Positions 4,984-37,659 of a DNA stretch of 64,000 bases are shown here, piece after piece; position 1 is the first letter of the stretch, and every line of letters begins with the position of its first letter. The notes under the pieces are model-generated. The model was not told the DNA's origin. It did not search any database and saw only the letters and a list, made by a program, of their open reading frames with translations. Made by a program: the position numbers and the translations under genes. This DNA is from a virus (taxonomy: Duplodnaviria > Heunggongvirae > Uroviricota > Caudoviricetes). The stretch is from the IMG/VR virus record IMGVR_UViG_3300045988_149737. The stretch is one strand, 5' to 3'.

Positions 4984-5853
4984 ATGAACTTTACCAAACT
5001 GACTGACCACCTGAAACTTGCCACCGATCGACTCATTGGATTTAAGCCAGAACCATATGAGTTGCATGAAGGCCATGGTGTAGCCACTGAAAGTATTTAC
5101 AAGATGGTCGATCAGTTTCATGAACTCTTCCAGCATCCGAGACGCGTTATGCCGACACCAGAGCTGCTTCGTCTCCGTGCAAGCCTGATTCATGAAGAAG
5201 CTGTAGTGGAAGGGATTCCAGCCGCAATGAATGGGGATATTGAGCAACTGCTGGATGCAATGGCCGACTTTTTATACGTTGGTGTTGGTACGATGGTCTC
5301 CATCAAAGGTGGTATTTCTACCGGCATGACCTATTACACGCAGGAACAGAGCATTGATCGCTTTATGCAGACAATTTTTGTGCCCGGTAACACTGTTTTC
5401 GATGATATGGCAATGCCATTTCAGGAAGCTCGTGAGGCGTCATGTATGCTCGAAGAGCTGGCAGATAAACTTGAGAAGAAGGCTGTTAAGGATTCTGAGC
5501 TGATTCAGGAACTGCGCCGTGTAATGAACAAAATCTATGTGGCGTGCATGATGACTTATCGACTGGCTGATTTCCTCGGTATCAATGTCGTCGAGCTGGT
5601 TGGCGAAATTCATCGGTCTAACATGACAAAATTATGGCCTGCTGATGTTGAGGAACGTCGCCAGGCTGTGGCCAACTGCAAATACGACTCTTCAGATCTG
5701 GGATTCCGCCATGCTGATGGCACCGATAAGATGATCGGTTTTCGAATTTCCGATGGAAAGATTCTGAAGTCTCCAACCTATAGTGATGTCGATTTATCCT
5801 CCTTTGTTGAGCAAGCTAAAGCCTCAGCAATGTACGGAATGATCAAAAAATAA
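4984..5853 (+). CDS. hypothetical protein, possible MazG-like NTP pyrophosphohydrolase N-terminal domain
   Basis: 289 aa; segment LIHEEAVVEGIPAAMNGDIEQLLDAMADFLYV resembles the EExxE...D helical motif of MazG/HisE-type enzymes; sits in the nucleotide-metabolism cluster. Function not established. Confidence 0.5.
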   Translation: MNFTKLTDHLKLATDRLIGFKPEPYELHEGHGVATESIYKMVDQFHELFQHPRRVMPTPELLRLRASLIHEEAVVEGIPAAMNGDIEQLLDAMADFLYVGVGTMVSIKGGISTGMTYYTQEQSIDRFMQTIFVPGNTVFDDMAMPFQEAREASCMLEELADKLEKKAVKDSELIQELRRVMNKIYVACMMTYRLADFLGINVVELVGEIHRSNMTKLWPADVEERRQAVANCKYDSSDLGFRHADGTDKMIGFRISDGKILKSPTYSDVDLSSFVEQAKASAMYGMIKK

Positions 5854-5920
5854 TTGTAGGTAGTTATCTATCTATGTATATTTAACATGCGTAATAAAAC
5901 TCTGGAATGACTATTCGTTT

Positions 5921-5947
5921 TGGTGGCCTATGGCCACCATTTTTTTA
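5921..5947 (+). terminator. rho-independent terminator
   Basis: tggtggcc-tat-ggccacca hairpin followed by ttttttt. Confidence 0.55.
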
Positions 5948-6023
5948 TCTGTCTGGTCTTGTTCTCTCAATGAATGTAAACTCACATGATGAATAAGTAA
6001 TTACTTATCTTTGTGAGGTTTTT

Positions 6024-7127
6024 GTGTCACTACTTTTGAATCGAGAGCATACGAACGGTCAGGTAACAAACGCATCGTATGCAAAAGTTATTGAGACGGT
6101 GCTTAAAAGCGGCGTGCAGGCTGATGATCGCACAGGCACTGGTACTTTAAGCACCTGCTACGTTCCCTCTTATTACATGCTTACTGGTGGGACTGTGCCG
6201 CTTATTTCTGGAAAGGCGGTAAATCTTAAGCCACTGCTTGTCGAACTTGAGTGGTATCTGAAAGGCACGGGCAACATCCAATTTCTCAAGGATAACGGCG
6301 TTAAGATTTGGGATGCATGGGCCGATGAGAATGGCGATTTGGGGCCGGTTTACGGTAAGCAGTGGCGTCGATGGGAAGATACCCGCATCGTGAGCCATAG
6401 TGAATATCTGAGCAAGATCGCTACTTTCCGTGAACGCGGGTACAAAGTCGAGGGATACCTGGGTATCAGTGAAGATCGCGTAGTGCTGTCCCGTGAAATC
6501 GATCAGCTACAGCGTATTGTCGATACACTGCGCACGAACCCTACCGATCGTCGCATCATGCTTAACGCATGGAACGTAGGCGAGCTTGAGGATATGAAAC
6601 TGCCACCTTGCCACTTTGTCTTCTCTTTGTGGAGTCGTGAGCTGGATTTTGAAACCCGTTTAACGATGGCAACTGACATTGGTCTTCAACACAGTCGCCT
6701 CGGTTACGAGTCTATCTACACCAAGATGCTATACGATCTGGAGGTGGACGGCAGTGTTACTGAAGCTGAACTGGATGAACTTGGAATCCCCAAACGCATC
6801 CTCAACTCCTGCCTCGTACAGCGTAGCGTAGACACTTTTGTTGGTATGCCATTCAATATTGCTGGCTATGGCATTCTCACTCATTTTCTCGCGAAGATTA
6901 CGGGTCACATGGCCGGTGCATTTGTGCATTTTGGCTTTGACGTGCATTTGTACAACAACCACATGGAAGGTGTGTGTGAGCTAATGAAACGACAGGCTCC
7001 AGAGCATTCAGATCCGGTCGTTATTTTCCCTCATGAATGGTCAGAGTTGGATGATTTCAAATGGGACGAGGTTTTAATTCTTGGCTATGACCCTCTATCG
7101 TGGATCAAGGTTCCAGTGGCGGTGTGA
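6024..7127 (+). CDS. thyA: thymidylate synthase family protein (ThyA-like, 367 aa with two insertions)
   Basis: DRTGTGTLS, IWDAWADENGDLGPVYGKQWR, catalytic LPPCH and MPFNIAGY (uracil-specifying Asn) are present; GTG start with RBS gagg; about 100 residues longer than canonical ThyA. Confidence 0.85.
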   Translation: MSLLLNREHTNGQVTNASYAKVIETVLKSGVQADDRTGTGTLSTCYVPSYYMLTGGTVPLISGKAVNLKPLLVELEWYLKGTGNIQFLKDNGVKIWDAWADENGDLGPVYGKQWRRWEDTRIVSHSEYLSKIATFRERGYKVEGYLGISEDRVVLSREIDQLQRIVDTLRTNPTDRRIMLNAWNVGELEDMKLPPCHFVFSLWSRELDFETRLTMATDIGLQHSRLGYESIYTKMLYDLEVDGSVTEAELDELGIPKRILNSCLVQRSVDTFVGMPFNIAGYGILTHFLAKITGHMAGAFVHFGFDVHLYNNHMEGVCELMKRQAPEHSDPVVIFPHEWSELDDFKWDEVLILGYDPLSWIKVPVAV

Positions 7128-7128
7128 T

Positions 7129-7542
7129 ATGGCAAGAGGTATGTATGTCTTATGCGAAATTGAAGGTGTGCTGGCAAATGCCAGCCATCGTAAATCAGTA
7201 TCTGACGCGGATGCAGGCCAGCTCATTGCCGGTGATGAACTCATTTTCCCCACTAGCCGTATGTTGCGTGGTTTTGCTCGCTCAGGGGCTGAAGTGGTGC
7301 TTATCAGTAGCCGCTCTGAAACTCTTGAAGCGCCCACTAAACGATGGCTGAAAGATTTTGGCGTTGATTACGACTGGCTTTATCTCGTACCGAATGGCAC
7401 CAGTTATGAGAAGCATATTAAGCGCACATTAGCGGAGCATAAAGGCGATCTGCTTATCGCTGCGCTGGTGCACGATCCTCGACTCCGTGCCGCTTTAGCC
7501 GACTCTCACCATCGACCGGTCATCTATGAGGTGAGCAAATGA
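7129..7542 (+). CDS. hypothetical protein
   Basis: ATG overlaps thyA stop (tgatATGg); ORF track shows a longer version from 7081 overlapping thyA. No confident motif. Confidence 0.45.
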   Translation: MARGMYVLCEIEGVLANASHRKSVSDADAGQLIAGDELIFPTSRMLRGFARSGAEVVLISSRSETLEAPTKRWLKDFGVDYDWLYLVPNGTSYEKHIKRTLAEHKGDLLIAALVHDPRLRAALADSHHRPVIYEVSK

Positions 7543-8015
7543 AGATGATCGCTGCTGTTGGCCGTAACTATGAGATCGGCATAGCGAATGAACTCCCCTG
7601 GCGTTGTTCTACCGATCTGAAGCTATTTAAGAGACTCACCAAAAACGCCACTGTCGTTATGGGGCGTAAAACGATGGAAAGTCTCAAACGCCCTCTTCCA
7701 GAGCGTCATAACCTCGTTTTGACGCGCTCTCATGGCTTTGTACCAAATGGATTCTACCCTGCTGGTGTGGATGATGTGTTGCGATTACCAGAGCCTGTGT
7801 GGGTGATTGGCGGGGAACAAATTTACTCGCTATTCATGCCGCATGTTGAAGAGATTTGGCTCTCCCACATCGGCGTTGATGTACCAAACGCCGATGCATT
7901 CTTCCCGGCAAGCATGATGCGTAACTTAGGCTTTGTGCCTGTTGAAACAGCTTATACCCAACGAGCCAGCGAGGAAGAGCCTGGCTTTTCGCAGATCGTA
8001 TACAGAAGGTCGTAA
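7539..8015 (+). CDS. folA: dihydrofolate reductase
   Basis: 158 aa; collinear with bacterial FolA (IAAVGRNYEIG..LPW, MGRKTMESL..PLPER.NLVLTRS, WVIGGEQIY); start overlaps upstream stop. Confidence 0.9.
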   Translation: MKMIAAVGRNYEIGIANELPWRCSTDLKLFKRLTKNATVVMGRKTMESLKRPLPERHNLVLTRSHGFVPNGFYPAGVDDVLRLPEPVWVIGGEQIYSLFMPHVEEIWLSHIGVDVPNADAFFPASMMRNLGFVPVETAYTQRASEEEPGFSQIVYRRS

Positions 8016-8659
8016 TGGATTACCGGATTGGGATCACTGGTGCTCAGGGCAGTGGGAAAACAACCCTGGCTAAATATATCGACAAACATTACGGAATCCC
8101 TTACGTGGATGCTGGTGTCGGAAGTTTGATGAGCCGCCTCGGTGTTCGAGTAGGTGATTCTATGCCTCTATATGAGCGGCTTCAGATTCAAATGGAAATA
8201 GCAAAGCATATAGAGCTACTTACGCGTGGTGTTGAAGGCTTTGTTATCGATCGCACACCTGCTGATGTTATGGCCTACACGTTGGATTTGGTCGGCCATA
8301 CCAATGAAGATCGGTGTATTGAGTTAGCCCTCGATATCGAAAAGTTTTGCCACAAAACTGCTATTTCAAACTTTAACGCCATTGCTGGCTTACGCCCGGG
8401 AGTCGCTCTCTCAGAGCGAGATTACTTGCGATCACAACGAGCATCATTAGACCGTCTGTATGTCGCTCGTATTGATGCGTTGATGTGCGGGGAACTGACA
8501 AAAATTCACCTGCATCCGCAAAGGGGAGATCTGCAAACCTTCGTCGTTTCCAACCGATATCGCACAGTTGAAGCAAGAGCCAGATCAGTAATGAGAATGC
8601 TCGATAACGCGGTAGAAAAGATAGAAAACCTCTTCTGTGGCCGAGTGACCGTTCATTAG
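8015..8659 (+). CDS. P-loop NTPase, putative (deoxy)nucleotide kinase
   Basis: Walker A GITGAQGSGKTT near N-terminus; size and context (after DHFR/TS/RNR) fit a dNMP-kinase-like enzyme. Exact activity unknown. Confidence 0.55.
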   Translation: MDYRIGITGAQGSGKTTLAKYIDKHYGIPYVDAGVGSLMSRLGVRVGDSMPLYERLQIQMEIAKHIELLTRGVEGFVIDRTPADVMAYTLDLVGHTNEDRCIELALDIEKFCHKTAISNFNAIAGLRPGVALSERDYLRSQRASLDRLYVARIDALMCGELTKIHLHPQRGDLQTFVVSNRYRTVEARARSVMRMLDNAVEKIENLFCGRVTVH

Positions 8660-8720
8660 AAATTGTTCGCCTCTTCGACATTGCGACAATAAAACTCTCA
8701 AAATGGGTTAAGGATAAAAA

Positions 8721-9149: not shown

Positions 9150-9707
9150 ATGACAACGATTGTTGCAGGCATCGATATCGAGTCTACGGGACTGGATTTC
9201 CTTGCTGGTCATAAAATTATTGAAATCGCAATTACCCGCTATGAACTGGAGACACAGAGACATATTGATAGTCTGGAGATGCGTTTTAACCCTCGCAGAA
9301 ACATAGATCCGAAAGCTCAAGCCGTTCATGGCATTTCATTGGAACAGCTCGCAGCTGAACCTTTGTTGTCAAATCATGCCAGCGAAATTGGCGCTTATAT
9401 GGGGGCATGTAGTGCGTGGATTGCTCATAACGGCGAAGCGTTTGATATACCATTTATTCGACACGAGTTTTCAGGGTATGGAGTAAGACTGCCAGACGTT
9501 CCTGTTATAGATACTATGTTATCGGGATTGTGGGCCACAGAAGACGGTAAACGTCCACGCCTTGAAGAGTTGGCCTTCTCTCTTGGCTTTATATACGATC
9601 ATGCCAAAGCACATAGTGCCTTATATGACACAAAATTAATGATGCAATGCTTCTTTAAGGCACGTAATAAGTACGGATTTTTTAAATTACCCTCTGAAAT
9701 TGTGTAA
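9150..9707 (+). CDS. DEDDh 3'-5' exonuclease (DnaQ/epsilon-like)
   Basis: Exo I GIDIESTGLD, Exo II HNGEAFDIPF, Exo III HSALYDT; RBS aaggag. Confidence 0.8.
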   Translation: MTTIVAGIDIESTGLDFLAGHKIIEIAITRYELETQRHIDSLEMRFNPRRNIDPKAQAVHGISLEQLAAEPLLSNHASEIGAYMGACSAWIAHNGEAFDIPFIRHEFSGYGVRLPDVPVIDTMLSGLWATEDGKRPRLEELAFSLGFIYDHAKAHSALYDTKLMMQCFFKARNKYGFFKLPSEIV

Positions 9708-10858: not shown

Positions 10859-11452
10859 ATGATTGCAGCCGAAAAAATCAAACAGCGAAAGCGCGACAAC
10901 TCTCTTCGTGACCTCTGGAGAACACCTGACTGGCTGTTTTCTGCCATTCAACGTTATCTTGGGGTGACATTTGATGTTGACGTTGCCTGCAACAAGGACA
11001 ATGCAAAGCTGCCTAATTTCATAGGCGTTGAGCGTGATGCTTTGAAATCTGAATGGGGACAGCCAGGTACAATTGCCTTCCTCAATCCCCCCTACTCCAA
11101 AATCTCCCCCTGGATTGATGCGGCTATACGTGAGCAGGCTCGCGGAGTTACAACAGTGATGCTAATTCCTCAATCCCTAGATACAAAGTGGTATGAGCGT
11201 GCAACAGAGTGTGCGAATGAGACGATTATTCTGTCTGGTGGCCGCGTAGCGTTTGTCGAGCCTGACGTCAATCTGGGTCAGGTAGAAGTAAACATCAACC
11301 CAGGTGGCAGTATGCTCGTTGTTTTTCGAGGATTCTGTCAGGACGCTGGGCACTCTATAAGCAAGATCCCTTTGGACGTCATGAAAAGTCTGGGAGGGTA
11401 TGATCCTGCGAATGTGATCAGGAAAAAAAGACCATCAAAGAAGGCTGCTTAG
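10859..11452 (+). CDS. DNA N6-adenine methyltransferase (phage Dam-type)
   Basis: TPDWLF near N-terminus and FLNPPYSK catalytic motif. Confidence 0.85.
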   Translation: MIAAEKIKQRKRDNSLRDLWRTPDWLFSAIQRYLGVTFDVDVACNKDNAKLPNFIGVERDALKSEWGQPGTIAFLNPPYSKISPWIDAAIREQARGVTTVMLIPQSLDTKWYERATECANETIILSGGRVAFVEPDVNLGQVEVNINPGGSMLVVFRGFCQDAGHSISKIPLDVMKSLGGYDPANVIRKKRPSKKAA

Positions 11453-11473
11453 TTTGTTCTGGCGTCTGTAATT

Positions 11474-11532
11474 AGCCTGCTTCTGTATATATAAATAACT
11501 ACATATTAATTATTAATATACGGAAGCAGGCT
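11474..11532. repeat. long inverted-repeat hairpin element, copy A
   Basis: agcctgcttctgtatata ... tatacggaagcaggct arms around an AT-rich loop; a second near-identical copy at 41167-41225. Confidence 0.6.
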
Positions 11533-11637
11533 GTTTTGTATCAGAGACTCCAGACCTGAACATCACTACAGAATCCACTAGAACCCCTTCCCAGACGCTT
11601 TAAAATCGATTTTATGAATCACTTTAAGGAAACTAAC

Positions 11638-11868
11638 ATGTCATACCCGACTAATGTCGTTGCGCTCGTAGAGAGCGATTTTCTGGCCCAGGCCCGTGAA
11701 ATGATGAAAGATCGCGAGCAGGCTTTCAACTTGTACGAATGGGCAATTAAGTGCTTGCATCTTGGGGAGCATCGCGAACTTGTTGAACAGCTTTTAGGTG
11801 AGTTGATTAACGAGGTGTTTGCCTTGAATGTTCAACTACATGGTCGAGAAAATAATCAATCGAAATGA
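11638..11868 (+). CDS. hypothetical small protein
   Basis: 76 aa from ATG at 11638 (RBS taaggaaa); ORF track begins 8 codons earlier without an RBS. Confidence 0.4.
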   Translation: MSYPTNVVALVESDFLAQAREMMKDREQAFNLYEWAIKCLHLGEHRELVEQLLGELINEVFALNVQLHGRENNQSK

Positions 11869-12388
11869 TAGATAAGTACAAACTATTCATAAAGTGAATT
11901 GTAAGTGCTAAGATCTGATAGTTTCCAGTCGTAGACTGGAGACTCGACCTGATGGGTGGGGGATAGCGTCACTGGCGTCAGGTTTAAAAAAGCTCACTAC
12001 CAGCGTAGAACCGGCACCGTTTAGGGGTTGGGGAAGGGGGAACCAAAGTGGGCAGAGAGAAGGGTCACTTTATGATTGTCGAGTCTGGAGTGTTTAGAGA
12101 GGTTGAATCCAGTGCTCCCCTTCATAAAGTGTGGGAAGATCTCGGTTCTGGGGTGCTGTCATCCATAACTTCCCAAGTCTAAGCTGGCAGTAGACTTAGG
12201 CCATAACTTTTCAGGTTATGAAACGACCAGGTTGGTGAGGGATTTTTATACTCACCTCCCTGGGAGAGTATTACCTGAAAAGACAACCTCTCACTTCGTT
12301 CGAGGTGAACTTCACTCACTTCGTTCGTTCAGTTCAGGTTTATAAAAACCTGTTCTGGGAAGTAATTTGTTTATTTTAATAATTATTA

Positions 12389-12413
12389 ACACGCACGCGT
12401 GTGCGCACGCGCG
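12389..12413. repeat. 25-nt perfect alternating purine/pyrimidine tract
   Basis: acacgcacgcgtgtgcgcacgcgcg alternates R/Y without interruption; contains palindromes cacgcgtg and gtgcgcac. Confidence 0.7.
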
Positions 12414-12453
12414 AGGAAAAAAAATCGGCGCGGCGCTTGATTCAGGAGTTTAT

Positions 12454-13047
12454 ATGACGACGAAGACACCAGCCCGATCGCAAGCAAAAACTCGCAAAAA
12501 AGCCAAAAACAAAAATTCTCCCCGCACCAATTACACAACGCCTGTCGTAGAGTTCAATCCCCAGCTTAAAACCGTGAAAATCTTCAGTGATGGATCTTGC
12601 CTTAAAAATCCGGGTGGCCCGGGCGGTTACGGTATCGTTCTTCAGTATCGTGGAGAGGAACGCGAGTTCTCAGATGGTTTTCATAGCACCACCAATAACC
12701 GCATGGAGATGATGGGGGCACTTATCGGGCTGGAGCGTTTGAAATATCCATGCAACGTTATTTTACACTCTGATAGCCAGTATCTGAAAAACGGCATGAC
12801 ACTGTGGATGAAATGGTGGAAACGCAATGGATGGATGACTTCTGACAAAAAACCGGTAAAGAATGTTGATCTGTGGAAGCGTCTGGATGAGGCTGCAAGT
12901 CGACATAATGTTCGCTGGAAGTGGGTTAAAGGTCACGCCGGGCATCGTGAAAATGAAATATGTGATCGACTCGCGAAGATCGCAGCTTTTTCCGCAGCAG
13001 ATATGCCTCACAAGAAAGATATTGGTTTTGTTTACAACAAACGGTAG
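12454..13047 (+). CDS. rnhA: ribonuclease HI with basic N-terminal extension
   Basis: [51 protein letters not shown] collinear with E. coli RnhA; ATG at 12454 with RBS caggag (ORF track start 12367 lacks RBS). Confidence 0.9.
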
Positions 13048-13062
13048 GTAAGTGTTTACCTA
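13045..13062. promoter_or_regulatory. palindrome TAGGTAA-gtgt-TTACCTA (family 2 site)
   Basis: Overlaps the rnhA stop codon. Confidence 0.4.
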
Positions 13063-13192
13063 TCATTTTAAATCATGTATCTTATCGGCGTCAGGATGAC
13101 AATGTGTCGGTAAGACACAGTTCCAGGATGGAACGAGAAAGGCGGCTGGCGATTGCCAGCCGCAACTCTTTCTGACACTGGATGGAGTCCAC

Positions 13193-28815: not shown

Positions 28816-29188
28816 TATAGCGTGAGGGAGAGTTGCGGCTACCCACCTGTAATGTGCGGGAAGAAGAGAGGCGCTAACGTGCAGGCGAACTTACTTACCG
28901 CTGGATTCCCTCTGAATGCCCAACTACAGCGTAATTGTGCCAGACAGCCAACGGGTCACAATCGATTTCAGTAGGTTTTCGGGGAGAGGATTATTCTGCC
29001 CACCAGCCACTTTCGGCCACCAAATCAGAATAATGTAAAAAGTGTACTCGGTACTGAACCTGAAAACTCACTGCCAAAACAACATTCACCGGAATAAAAT
29101 CCTTTTTCGCCTTTGCGTTATTGCGATAATAACGCCAACAAGAAAACAACATATTTAGACGTTGTAGAAACGAAGTGAGGATGAAGAG

Positions 29189-29407
29189 ATGATTAAGATG
29201 CCTGTGACGGTTGAGGTGTGGGGCGTGGATTCCCTGGCTGAGTGTCTGGATGCAGTGGGGCCGGAGTTGTACCGCAAGTTGTGGTCGTTCGTCCCGGCAG
29301 AAGGGGAATCGCCCAAAGGGAAGGATATCTGGCACCTGCTGAGTGAAGATGAAAAGCGGGAGCTGGTGGGCGCGGTACACAGCGAGTTCCCGGACGACGA
29401 AGATTAA
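29189..29407 (+). CDS. hypothetical small acidic protein
   Basis: 72 aa; family-1 operator and RBS upstream; hairpin terminator downstream. Confidence 0.45.
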   Translation: MIKMPVTVEVWGVDSLAECLDAVGPELYRKLWSFVPAEGESPKGKDIWHLLSEDEKRELVGAVHSEFPDDED

Positions 29408-36099: not shown

Positions 36100-37659
36100 C
36101 TAATCTCGTTTCAGAACTCCAAAATCGAATGCTCCATCAATAGGCAATACACCTTCTGCAAAGCCAGGTGTGGTGTCGATGATGTGTTTTCGCTCATAAG
36201 AGTGAGACAACAGGTATTTGTTGCTAATGTCAATGAAATCAGTGATAAAACACACGTTTGCCTGATTTTTTTTTGCTCGTAAGCCACGACCGACACGCTG
36301 TCTCATTTCAACTTCTGCTTTCCCACCACCAGCAAGAATGACCGCACCAACGCTTGGCACATCAACACCGACATCCAGAATAGTCGAGCCTATTAAAACA
36401 TCTATTTCACCAGACGCTAAACTATTCAGCTTTGCTTGCCTTGTCGTCTGGTTAGATTCCCCATAGATGAAATCAACTTTAAGACCTGACTCCTTCATCA
36501 TCTCCATCAGGATTTGCCCGTGGCGTTTAAGACGAACCAGAGTCATGCAGTTGAGTGAATGTTGCTTATAAAGCAATGCCTCGCGCACTATGGCCTCGTT
36601 ACGTCCCAAATTATACACGATCCCCAACTGATAAGCCTTTTGGTAGGCGGTGCTCATACCAACTCTAAAATTGAGGTGTTTGTTGGCAAGTTCGGCCTTG
36701 ATTCTGGCCTCGTCTGGCTTGTAGGCAACTTTATGATAAAGGAAGTACGGCTTTGCCAGAATGCCTCGATCAATCAGGTACTTTTCTGTGACTTTAATTT
36801 CAATTCGCCCGGCCACCGCCATCAGGCGCATGTTGGCTTCCGTCGAATCCTTCATGAACGGCGTGGCTGTAAGCGCCAGACGATAGTCTGCGTTCACACA
36901 TAATCTGGCGATGTCATAGAAATTTGAGCCTGAAGACTCATGCGCCTCTTCCAGAATAAGAAGAGAGACACTTGAAAGGAAGCGTTTCACCAACTCCCGA
37001 CGTTTGAGGTGGTAGCTTTTCTTATCTGGTGTTGCATCGCGTGGTGGTTCTTCGAGGAAACTTGCAAGAGTTTGAACTGTAGCGACGTTGATATGTCGTG
37101 ATACCTGGAACTCACCCGAGCCAATGACTCCAACCTTTTGGTCTTTTAACCACGGTTCGCCATTTTCGGCGCGGTAGTCGATGGATCTCTGGAAGTTTTC
37201 GGCCATTTGAAACATCAGAACAGAGCGGGTTGTTAAAAATAATGTCATTCGACCGATACGTGCAGCTGCTTTGCAGGCAACGTTAGATTTCCCGCCACCA
37301 GTAGCGATCTGCGCAATCATCATTCCCTCTCGAACCAGTGTTTCCACAGTCTGATCCTGATACGCATAATCAGGATTGTATGGGAATGGGTTAACCGCTG
37401 GATTTGGTTTACCAAGCGCCGGGGCTTTGTCTTTGCGGATATGAACACATTTGATGCCCGCCTTGTTCAAGTTCGCCGCTACAGGCTTGGCAAAGCCAGC
37501 AGGGAACGAGTTTTTACTCCAGTTGAACATCGTGCTTGTGCCCTTCCAGTCGCCAGTCTCGACTTCGTAGCTCAACATTTGCTGCACCAGTTGCTTTACC
37601 TTGTCATCTGCGCCAGAAATAAGCGCATTTACTGCGTTAGATACAATCCGAACAGTCAT
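36100..37659 (-). CDS. superfamily 2 helicase (DEAD/DEAH-box-like)
   Basis: Walker A IATGGGKS, motif II LILEEAHE, motif III TATP, motif VI RVGRGLR; RBS aaggaaagagg. Confidence 0.8.
   Translation of the reverse strand: MTVRIVSNAVNALISGADDKVKQLVQQMLSYEVETGDWKGTSTMFNWSKNSFPAGFAKPVAANLNKAGIKCVHIRKDKAPALGKPNPAVNPFPYNPDYAYQDQTVETLVREGMMIAQIATGGGKSNVACKAAARIGRMTLFLTTRSVLMFQMAENFQRSIDYRAENGEPWLKDQKVGVIGSGEFQVSRHINVATVQTLASFLEEPPRDATPDKKSYHLKRRELVKRFLSSVSLLILEEAHESSGSNFYDIARLCVNADYRLALTATPFMKDSTEANMRLMAVAGRIEIKVTEKYLIDRGILAKPYFLYHKVAYKPDEARIKAELANKHLNFRVGMSTAYQKAYQLGIVYNLGRNEAIVREALLYKQHSLNCMTLVRLKRHGQILMEMMKESGLKVDFIYGESNQTTRQAKLNSLASGEIDVLIGSTILDVGVDVPSVGAVILAGGGKAEVEMRQRVGRGLRAKKNQANVCFITDFIDISNKYLLSHSYERKHIIDTTPGFAEGVLPIDGAFDFGVLKRD

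Follow-up and report, generated by a model that had tools for sequence, protein, structure and literature searches.

A conserved intergenic segment ahead of rnhA

The DNA analysed here is a 64-kb window from the viral record IMGVR_UViG_3300045988_149737 (Caudoviricetes), out of a roughly 108-kb element. We focus on the interval bounded by an 84-residue open reading frame (ORF; 11614-11868; PHROG 5343, unknown function) and the RNase HI gene rnhA (ATG at 12454), which very probably holds a discrete structured RNA gene. Over positions 11400-13100 the window shares 97-98% identity with Escherichia phage Cyrano (the pLF82 phage-plasmid; accession OV696614.1), phage CMS-2020a, and PhiR41_1, ~82% with Salmonella phage SSU5 (JQ965645), and ~78% with Klebsiella phage-plasmids; it is an SSU5-like phage-plasmid. 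The locus sits inside an all-plus-strand replication and nucleotide-metabolism block that encodes a DnaQ-like exonuclease and Dam and, in Cyrano, also ThyX, DHFR, and Pnkp.

Six diverse relatives share 89.6-97.9% identity with the window over the core of the interval (11945-12366), against only 71-81% for their dam, orf84, rnhA, and orf164. The 75 nucleotides (nt) ahead of the core cannot be aligned in diverse relatives. A distant blastn search with the segment has matches on 687 plasmids of PLSDB (Klebsiella 310, Escherichia 195, Enterobacter 88, Salmonella 49, Citrobacter 24, and others), where the stretch from ~11943 to 12421 keeps 88-97% identity. Of 5426 complete RefSeq E. coli genomes, 232 contain it, nearly always on plasmids of ~106-120 kb, and no feature is annotated beneath any of these matches. 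The same 5426 genomes contain no chromosomal homolog of the RNA, the window holds no paralog, and a comparison of RNase H-anchored loci yields no distant homolog of the whole RNA beyond the SSU5-like elements. Scans of IMG/VR with two different invariant motifs return SSU5-like contigs only, plus one match (L425) attributable to chance. By these comparisons the RNA appears to be private to SSU5-like phage-plasmids of Enterobacteriaceae. Searches of the literature on the 3′ motif described below, on spurious peptides derived from it, and on non-coding RNAs (ncRNAs) of pHCM2 and SSU5 found no prior description.

Among 1378 pairs of sequences, divergence in the core correlates with divergence in rnhA (Pearson 0.81, Spearman 0.87) and in the upstream genes (r = 0.70), with slopes of 0.28-0.29. 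The core is therefore co-inherited with its flanks and evolves ~3.5 times more slowly. The same correlation rules out recent horizontal spread as the source of its high conservation.

A promoter footprint and a discrete transcript

Within the otherwise unalignable or variable spacer upstream of the core, the positions that never change coincide exactly with a sigma-70 promoter (Table 1). This phylogenetic footprint was read from 62 distinct related sequences, the set used for the alignment, promoter footprint, ORF integrity, and alternating-tract counts reported here. The two hexamers, which a sigma-70 unit places 17 ± 1 nt apart, are separated by 17 nt in all 62 relatives. The −35 element begins with TT (TTnnnn) and the −10 element reads TAnnAT (TAAGAT, TAAAAT, TAGAAT, TACAAT, or TAGGAT) in every relative, while the extended −10 TGn is present in 52. 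Exactly 6 nt lie between the −10 element and the first base of the 5′ hairpin P0 in 62 of 62 (P0 starts 7 nt after the −10). With fewer than 9 of 12 matches, this promoter escaped a generic promoter scan. Transcription is predicted to start at the invariant G11921, at the base of P0, which itself covaries; the RNA would therefore open with a 5′-terminal stem-loop and no single-stranded leader. Such stem-loops stabilize bacterial RNAs against RNase E- and RppH-dependent (5′-end-dependent) decay. At the other end, a U-rich tract begins only 6-8 nt after the covarying hairpin H19, whose apical pairs change from UA to GC and from UA to AU, and the spacer that follows H19 carries indels of up to 18 nt.

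RNA-seq coverage, one of the checks proposed in an earlier sequence-only reading of this DNA, is available from published data and reveals a discrete transcript. Misson et al. reanalysed strand-resolved RNA-seq of LF82 (GSE154648) and drew the profiles per strand (PMC9928086). In Cyrano, a 44-residue GTG ORF inside the core is annotated as CYRAN_81, which counts as one of 13 “morons” of Cyrano, with a signal 12-fold over the prophage background (PMC9928086). The normalized values in S1 Table are 117 for CYRAN_81, 9.5 for CYRAN_80 (the 84-residue ORF), 8.4 for CYRAN_82 (rnhA), and 6.0 for Dam, which places CYRAN_81 12-14 times above both neighbors in the prophage state (PMC9928086). The signal falls ~14-fold between the RNA locus and rnhA, which stays at background expression in lysogens. 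CYRAN_81 exceeds both neighbors by 3-5 log2 units in 10 of 10 samples, rises ~10-fold from log2 ~6.9 in LB to 10.3 in macrophages at 6 h, and follows a profile close to that of the phage repressor CYRAN_45 (PMC9928086). Since it stands above both neighbors, it forms an independent transcription unit that is neither read-through from upstream nor continued into rnhA. Such expression fits the predicted promoter and a 3′ end in the region made up of hairpin 12329-12358 and the U-rich stretch behind it.

By far the strongest Cyrano signal in these data belongs to a different locus, the “hypothetical protein” CYRAN_43 (OV696614.1 40268-40822), at 723-fold over the prophage background, and CYRAN_40 reaches 15-fold (PMC9928086); these signals may also be RNAs.

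Two further observations concern the promoter-proximal spacer. In the E. coli lineage only, the promoter region 11886-11916 (TTCATAAAGTG...GTGCTAAGATCT) partly duplicates an internal RNA segment at 12121-12142 (TTCATAAAGTGTGGGAAGATCT), which suggests that the spacer of this lineage may have been rebuilt from internal RNA sequence. The palindrome GGTAAGTNNTTACC is strongly over-represented in the window, with 17 strand-matches at ~12 distinct sites compared with 2.7 expected (1286, 5996, 10831, 13047, 18017, 37708, 43229, and 46652, with a degenerate copy at 11872). Wherever its position was checked it is intergenic, for example right ahead of dam and right behind rnhA. A perfect copy (GGTAAGTACTTACC) abuts the −35 element of the RNA promoter in non-E. 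coli lineages and is degenerate in the E. coli lineage. The palindrome may be an operator or a terminator-like phage element.

Covariation supports a multi-domain fold on the plus strand

A 511-nt region spanning the locus is more stable than its shuffled versions (minimum free energy z = −4.6). So is its reverse strand (z = −4.9), and folding energy alone therefore does not pick the strand. We derived a consensus fold with RNAalifold from first 18 and then 62 distinct sequences. The final model contains 146 predicted pairs, with 98.7% of cells paired, and compensatory changes on both sides occur at 15 pairs and in 189 cells. The covariation score of 0.095 exceeds that of shuffled alignments (0.059 ± 0.002; 0 of 500 reach it) and that obtained when the partners are slid by 1-3 columns (0.013-0.028). 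Compensatory support is confined to six helices: 1 (P0), 2, 3, 9, 14, and 19. Strand is indicated by dozens of invariant G-U pairs, together with switches from G-C to G-U or from A-U to G-U, which are acceptable on the plus strand only and would be A·C mismatches on the minus strand. The suggestion that the segment encodes a structured RNA thus gains support from covariation above controls, which was the first check put forward for it, and from plus-strand-only G-U pairs, a conserved promoter, and strand-resolved RNA-seq. The two general marks of a structured RNA, compensatory substitutions above controls and a discrete transcript in published RNA-seq, are both present.

The fold consists of several domains (Table 1). 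P0 stems are wholly different between lineages (GCTGGCAGA/TCTGCCAGC, GCTTCCGGA/TCCGGAAGC, and GATTTCGA/TCGAAATC), and hairpin H2 contains several invariant G-U pairs. The central domain comprises H9 (12066-12131), H11/H13 (12132-12175), H14 (12177-12201), and H15/H16 (12207-12282), of which H9 and H14 show compensatory changes. An alternative 9-bp closure of this domain pairs 12097-12105 with 12284-12292. Positions 12130-12177 and 12270-12335 are invariant across all relatives.

The G-runs noted from the sequence alone are present, as GGGTGGGGG at 11953-11961 and GGGGTTGGGGAAGGGGG at 12024-12040, and are mostly taken up by helices: the first lies in H2, and helix 5 joins the second to CCGGCACC. 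In the E. coli sub-lineage the leading GGGG of the second cluster reads GGTG, and about one-third of the relatives have one run interrupted. A conserved G-quadruplex, in which four G-tracts would be kept, is therefore unlikely, as one run is interrupted and the runs are engaged in H2 and H5.

Table 1 Features of the rnhA-proximal locus in window coordinates
Feature	Position	Strand	Observations
sigma-70 promoter	11886-11914	+	−35 TTCATA 11886-11891; 17-nt spacer; TG 11906-11907; −10 TAAGAT 11909-11914
Predicted ncRNA	11921-12385	+	~445-465 nt; 3′ end predicted in U-rich tract 12364-12388
5′ hairpin P0	11921-11943	+	GTTTCCAGT / ACTGGAGAC; 6 of 9 pairs changed on both sides
Hairpin H2	11946-11984	+	Holds G-rich block GGGTGGGGG; 15 pairs, 100% paired, 3 compensatory (AU>GC, CG>UA)
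Domain H3-H6	11992-12053	+	Second G-rich block 12024-12040; pair 139/197 seen as UA, UG, CG
GTG ORF, 44 residues (CYRAN_81 in Cyrano)	12048-12182	+	Judged not to be a gene
Central multi-helix domain	12055-12292	+	Closed by predicted long-range pairs 12055-12065 / 12286-12292
Double-hairpin module	12286-12334	+	Two 13-mers CTCACTTCGTTCG (12290-12302, 12315-12327); invariant in all 62 relatives
3′ hairpin H19 and variable spacer	12329-12388	+	H19 12329-12358, then U/A-rich variable spacer 12364-12388; presumed termination/3′-end region
Alternating purine/pyrimidine (CG/CA)n tract	12389-12413		In rnhA leader, outside the conserved RNA core
A8 homopolymer	12417-12424	+	A5 to A9 among 62 relatives
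Hairpin C of rnhA leader	12423-12442	+	AATCGG-CGCGGCGC-TTGATT; directly ahead of Shine-Dalgarno AGGAG 12444-12448
rnhA, RNase HI	12454-13047	+	Pfam RNase_H at residues 40-178, E = 7.5e-44; a neighbor, not part of the RNA

The segment lacks a conserved open reading frame

The sequence-only reading had described the segment as gene-free, with no ORF fitting between its neighbors, and had named a conserved ORF in homologs as the finding that would speak against it. Small ORFs of 44, 37, 46, and 34 residues do exist, but none is conserved, and all four are frameshifted or broken in 15 to 44 of the 62 relatives (44 for ORF37, and 21 and 20 for the minus-strand ORF46 and ORF34).

It is highly improbable that the 44-residue CYRAN_81 “moron” is a real small protein, even though OV696614.1 carries an annotation for the ORF, which is intact in 47 of 62 relatives and has been counted among the expressed morons. 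Indels of 1-2 nt shift its frame in 14 sequences, which include the entire Klebsiella and L070-type lineages, and one more has lost the start or stop; the nucleotides beyond the frameshift nonetheless stay invariant. The GTG start has no evident Shine-Dalgarno sequence, the product has no PHROG match, and the invariance spans all codon positions and reaches well past the ORF.

The 3′ module contains tips of a dispersed hairpin family

A short direct repeat had been pointed out in the segment, and it is indeed there; its actual unit is the 13-mer CTCACTTCGTTCG, whose two copies form the double-hairpin module (Table 1). Over 45 nt the module is 93% identical to a pattern in uncultured AT-rich T4-like phages, TCTCACTTCGTTCG-N6-AACTTCACTCACTTCGTTCGTTCAGT, and the two-copy repeat pattern also matches unrelated viral contigs. 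The T4-like phages that carry the module encode UvsY, UvsW, and gp46/47-like proteins. Among 50,697 phage records, the SSU5-like elements are the sole match to the T4-like intergenic region, and no cultured T4-like phage carries the module. In the T4-like loci a consensus sigma-70 promoter is followed by a conserved non-coding block of ~250 nt and then by the module, beside uvsW or uvsY. These non-coding loci are L105:2834-3752, L150:1839-2457, and L141:641-1138, and also occur in L095, L099, L118, L166, L173, and L347. The ~250-nt block is 70-75% identical between T4-like phages, and in L095, L105, and L173 the module forms an inverted pair around a 140-bp AT-rich center. Either an RNA gene or an origin may lie in this non-coding stretch beside uvsW or uvsY. 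The only protein common to the window and the T4-like module loci is a UvsW-like helicase: positions 36103-37659 of the minus strand encode a 519-residue superfamily-2 helicase (ResIII/DEAD/Helicase_C) that is 22% identical to UvsW of the module-sharing T4-like phages.

The 11-nt sequence TCACTTCGTTC lies in the loop of hairpins whose stems covary between families (ACCTC/GAGGT, CATC/GATG, AACAAC/GTTGTT, CTGGTC/GACCAG, and GTCCAC/GTGGAC); copy 1 in the window has ACCTC/GAGGT. Scans of genomes and metagenomes return, among the matches listed, mostly unrelated hairpin repeats that carry the 13-mer at the tips of variable stems, on a very large number of contigs. Within those matches the family occurs in isolates of Bacteria and Archaea and in phages, often in tandem with periods of 18-50 nt and often framed by GAGAT...ATGAC (loci L302-L421 in metagenomes, L179-L298 in genomes, and L084-L178 in viruses). 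At least four of five flanking Watson-Crick pairs are present in 111 of the 352 instances listed, compared with 9 of 352 with shuffled partners. Sister variants yield the consensus CTCRCTNCGYTCG (complement CGARCGNAGYGAG), with covariation between positions 4 and 10: of the variants on which the search had imposed no selection, 86 have a Watson-Crick pair there (G..C in 67, C..G in 19) and 9 do not. In collections this large, some tandem-array matches may owe their 13-mer to chance. The motif-bearing loci have no gene family in common (11 of 253 loci fall in the largest cluster, and 7 encode a small GIY-YIG protein), ten foreign motif-bearing loci gave no Rfam match, and the searchable literature yielded no description of the family. 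Dispersal and tandem repetition are features that it has in common with hairpins of the repetitive extragenic palindrome type.

On the complementary, purine-rich strand the tip is C-GA-NC-GNA-GN-GA-G, in which tandem G·A pairs flank a GNA triloop closed by C-G. For this strand ViennaRNA, run with RNA parameters, gives ..((...)).. at the tip, and the minus strand of the module in the window gives two GA-rich hairpins. GNA mini-hairpins are unusually stable DNA structures found at primase and virion RNA polymerase recognition sites, namely the G4 primase origin, RSF1010 ssiA, and the N4 promoters (PMC13037366). The minus-strand 13-mer (C-GA-AC-GAA-GT-GA-G), placed at the tip of a variable stem, resembles GCGNAGC mini-hairpin DNA and the ssi priming signals of the G4 origin and RSF1010 ssiA. 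It differs in its inner pair, since “extraordinary” stability requires two G-C pairs (PMC13037366) and the copies in the window (ACGAAGT) have one A-T and one C-G; in the SSU5 RNA, moreover, the pyrimidine strand is the transcribed one.

Several incidental similarities of the motif were considered. The 11-mer CACUUCGUUCG (12292-12302 and 12317-12327) equals nt 25-35 of E. coli tRNA-Pro(CGG), which run from the last part of the D-stem region through the 5′ side of the anticodon stem into the anticodon loop and thus make up only half an anticodon arm. The rough chance of such an identity against the E. coli tRNA set is ~7e-4, and it is probably a coincidence because the motif is ubiquitous in unrelated hosts. 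The motif also overlaps a Nanopore adapter by 11 nt. A sequencing-adapter artefact was dismissed, as the sequences of SSU5 (JQ965645) and pHCM2 predate that technology. Elsewhere in the window, GAAACGAAGTGAG at 29167-29179 offers 11 nt (29169-29179) complementary to the 13-mer loop and overlapping the ribosome-binding site of a 72-residue ORF (29189-29407). As an antisense target this site was rejected: it is kept in SSU5 and PhiR41_1 but lost in Klebsiella relatives with unchanged RNA loops, and is therefore not a family-wide target.

The alternating tract belongs to the rnhA leader

The sequence-only reading had listed the perfect 25-nt purine/pyrimidine alternation (ACACGCACGCGTGTGCGCACGCGCG), which ends 40 bp ahead of the rnhA ATG, among the features of the gene-free segment. 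The tract exists exactly as described; it falls outside the RNA core and downstream of it. Together with the A-run and hairpin C it belongs to the rnhA leader. In hairpin C, three of six pairs have changed on both sides, 87% of cells are paired, and the G-U pairs suit the plus strand.

At 25 nt, the tract is the longest such run in the window, where the next reaches 15; in 200 mononucleotide shuffles the longest run averages 16.2 and never exceeds 25. The run measures 21-29 nt in all but 4 of the 62 relatives, where it has 14-18 nt; both extensions and deletions of 10-15 nt are seen. A 6-bp hairpin could form, but the pairing also survives a slide by ±2, as expected for a dinucleotide repeat. 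The tract behaves as a length-polymorphic dinucleotide repeat that is conserved as an alternation. Its long uninterrupted alternation of CG and CA/TG, kept in relatives, is that of Z-DNA-prone (CG)n/(CA)n tracts and gives it Z-DNA potential by sequence alone; its range of 14-29 nt among relatives is, by contrast, that of a slippage-prone microsatellite.

RNase HI carries an N-terminal, Lys/Arg-rich extension of ~40 residues (12454-12573) ahead of its RNase_H domain, which could be a nucleic-acid-binding tail. In three relatives (L155, L170, and L171) most of rnhA is replaced right after the A-run, and the RNA is intact. The cargo is an 822-residue TIR-NLR defence protein in L155 (PADLOC E = 8e-166; 5600-8680, minus strand), an IS3-family transposase in L171 (7600-9408), and a 168-residue lipoprotein-like ORF in L170 (880-2600). 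The three junctions share ...AATGTC(C/T)TCAATGTGCCAAAAGC, and the site immediately downstream of the RNA looks like a putative hotspot of cargo insertion. The swaps leave the RNA intact, which indicates that it does not need rnhA. Conversely, an 80%-identical rnhA occurs without the RNA in another phage context (L066 and L067).

Further upstream, behind dam, an inverted repeat at 11466-11532 (GCCTGCTTC ... GAAGCAGGC) surrounds an extremely AT-rich loop of ~45 nt (TATATATAAATAACTACATATTAATTATTAATATAC) and could be a terminator or another site.

Comparison with known RNA classes

None of the 4227 models of Rfam 15, which include GOLLD, ROOL, RNAI, riboswitches, ribozymes, 6S, and Y RNA, matches the window at the gathering threshold. 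Over 11500-12600, hits at E ≤ 10 are of chance level only, the best reaching 21 bits against a gathering threshold of 56. ARAGORN finds no tRNA or tmRNA gene. An array of a type III toxin-antitoxin system (ToxI-like) was rejected, as only a 13-nt core is repeated, twice and 25 nt apart, and the downstream RNase HI has no PADLOC hit.

In size class, elaborate fold, phage or prophage link, high conservation, and unknown function, the RNA resembles GOLLD, ROOL, and other large structured bacterial ncRNAs. It differs from them in its lack of an Rfam match, its Enterobacteriaceae hosts, and its position away from tRNA genes. The C4 RNA of P1, the CI RNA of P4, and the CB RNA of N15 are likewise ncRNAs made in lysogeny when lytic genes are silent; those are, however, processed antisense RNAs of less than ~100 nt, whereas the RNA described here has ~450 nt, several domains, and no conserved complementary target in the window.

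A stand-alone RNA gene and its alternatives

Taken as a whole, these results favor a stand-alone, plus-strand ncRNA gene of ~450 nt (11886-12385), with an estimated probability of about 0.7 that includes the following explanation. The conserved extended −10 sigma-70 promoter would fire at G11921 in the plasmid-prophage state, while the replication and early genes on either side stay silent. The 5′-terminal hairpin would protect the transcript from 5′-end-dependent decay, and the RNA would fold into a multi-domain structure that ends ahead of rnhA. The stable RNA may then bind one or more conserved protein or nucleic-acid partners in trans, with the invariant 12130-12177 hairpin and the double 11-nt-loop module (12286-12334) as the likely contact surfaces. 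Scaffold, sponge, or decoy RNAs would be closer analogues than antisense RNAs. We prefer action in trans because the invariance extends over 200 nt and includes loops, because the RNA is constant between Klebsiella and Escherichia, and because the window contains no conserved antisense target that we could find. Action in trans through a bound protein is itself only a tentative proposal, on which we would not bet at even odds.

Several points weigh against this explanation. More than half of the predicted pairs never vary, including the long-range closing helices and the 3′ module, and these invariant helices are therefore neither backed nor contradicted by covariation. The 3′ module moreover has mutually exclusive pairings, and related sequences without structure can exceed the covariation controls, a caveat of the tool itself. 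Both ends of the RNA are predicted rather than mapped, a simple terminator scan calls no canonical terminator at its 3′ end, and the strand-awareness of the featureCounts step behind S1 Table was not verified. Binding of a protein in trans is purely our inference. The search for antisense targets, which turned up no stretch of more than 13 nt complementary to the RNA elsewhere in the window, covers only 64 kb of the ~108-kb element and no host sequence. Finally, in some T4-like phages the module lies in the orientation opposite to that of the predicted SSU5 transcript, a hint that DNA may be the level at which the module, if not the whole RNA, operates.

Part of the evidence would also suit a cis-acting leader or attenuator that terminates ahead of rnhA in the prophage state until a signal switches the structures of the 3′ domain and allows read-through. 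In every genome examined, the segment lies immediately upstream of rnhA or its replacement cargo and in the same orientation. Abundant upstream RNA with a much lower downstream signal is what a leader in its OFF state would give, and a U-rich tract follows the last hairpins. Exclusive pairings are also available (12097-12105/12284-12292 against hairpin 1, H18 against hairpins 1 and 2, and 12165-12175/12356-12366 against H11). We nevertheless consider a leader, though a serious rival, unlikely, since the RNA is far better conserved than its would-be target gene, is kept when rnhA is swapped for a TIR-NLR protein, an IS3 element, or a lipoprotein-like protein, and is missing ahead of the 80%-identical rnhA elsewhere. 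At ~440 nt and at least five independent domains, it is also much larger than known attenuators and matches no Rfam riboswitch or leader, while rnhA has a conserved leader hairpin of its own in hairpin C. Rather improbable, though also a serious rival, is the idea that the transcript serves as the R-loop or pre-primer RNA of a transcription-dependent origin of the ColE1 RNA II or T4 oriF type. Its G-rich 5′ part would stay hybridized to DNA, and the RNase HI of the element or host would process it, perhaps at the A-run, to prime synthesis toward rnhA. G clusters and a strong positive GC skew (+0.25 to +0.44 over 11900-12150) right after the promoter would suit such a role, as would an RNase HI gene directly downstream, the surrounding replication and nucleotide-metabolism module, expression in the plasmid state, and a length of ~450-550 nt like that of RNA II. 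The element also encodes the UvsW-like helicase (36103-37659), and relatives of the 45-nt module occur, among the matches listed, only in T4-like phages beside uvsW or uvsY. T4 UvsW removes origin R-loops, and T4 oriF lies near uvsW and uvsY. The minus strand of the module, furthermore, forms GNA-type mini-hairpins as at the G4 primase origin and RSF1010 ssiA (PMC13037366). Against a primer stand the lack of a skew switch, iteron, or DnaA box at the locus and the presence of a separate repA replicon elsewhere, as indicated by the quantitative PCR target “Cyrano repA” (PMC9928086). In addition, rnhA is silent in lysogens and dispensable for retention of the RNA, the G-runs are held in intramolecular helices and one is interrupted in about one-third of relatives, a hairpin and U-tract stand between the RNA and the A-run, and the RNAI/ColE1-related models of Rfam do not match.

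The same findings bear on the origin-like DNA that the sequence-only reading had offered as an alternative, for which a classical origin finds no support here. No tandem repeats occur near 12 kb, the nearest DnaA-like box lies at 9701, such boxes are fewer in the window than expected by chance, and the cumulative skew rises monotonically. ColE1 RNA II is likewise a structured plasmid transcript of several hundred nucleotides with G-rich segments and plasmid-state expression, whose fold decides its fate, and the RNA here adjoins an RNase HI gene. The two have no sequence or Rfam kinship, the promoter scan detected no minus-strand promoter inside the RNA that could drive an antisense partner like RNA I, the replicon is of the RepA type, and the RNA apparently ends before the A-run. 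With T4 oriF/oriG and UvsW the locus shares a promoter-driven transcript in a replication/recombination cluster, a UvsW-like helicase, and module relatives beside uvsW or uvsY. It differs in that cultured T4-like phages lack the module and that no DNA-unwinding element was identified, and the link to oriF is a putative one drawn from general T4 biology. We regard as very unlikely a purely DNA-level element with an incidental transcript, be it a single-stranded DNA priming signal, a cruciform, Z-DNA, or a protein-binding array. Such an element would accommodate the unfixed orientation of the module relative to transcription in T4-like phages, the more compact hairpins of the purine-rich minus strand, the Z-DNA-type alternating tract, and the occurrence of the hairpin-tip family in all orientations and in tandem arrays across prokaryotes (among the matches listed). 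Against it, G-U pairs are tolerated solely in plus-strand terms across the 420-nt core, a conserved promoter sets the start at a hairpin base, and the discrete RNA-seq signal would be left unexplained; the alternating tract and A-run also vary in length, unlike a precise binding site.

Implications for SSU5-like phage-plasmids

The conclusion that the stand-alone RNA is a new structured RNA gene, mis-annotated as a protein in one genome and unannotated elsewhere, is well supported. It is not demonstrably a new mechanism. A bolder reading, which we think unlikely to prove right, would make it the founding member of a new class of large, lysogeny-made phage-plasmid RNAs that engage a conserved cellular or phage machine through a double-hairpin module with the tip CTCRCTNCGYTCG. 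A single recognition mechanism would then operate family-wide, for example in priming or replication restart, as a nuclease barrier, or through a dedicated binding protein.

SSU5-like phage-plasmids are common in clinical Enterobacteriaceae, and resistance and defence genes are among the cargo they can have. In this part of their genome, conservation would peak in an unannotated RNA rather than a protein, and one of the few loci expressed in the prophage state. The published “moron protein” CYRAN_81 should accordingly be re-read as RNA. This RNA is a concrete candidate for a role in lysogeny maintenance, copy-number control, or host manipulation, and it could serve as a marker for typing these plasmids. 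Its 3′ module ties it to T4-like phages and to a widespread, undescribed hairpin family, a repeat class that thereby becomes approachable in E. coli.

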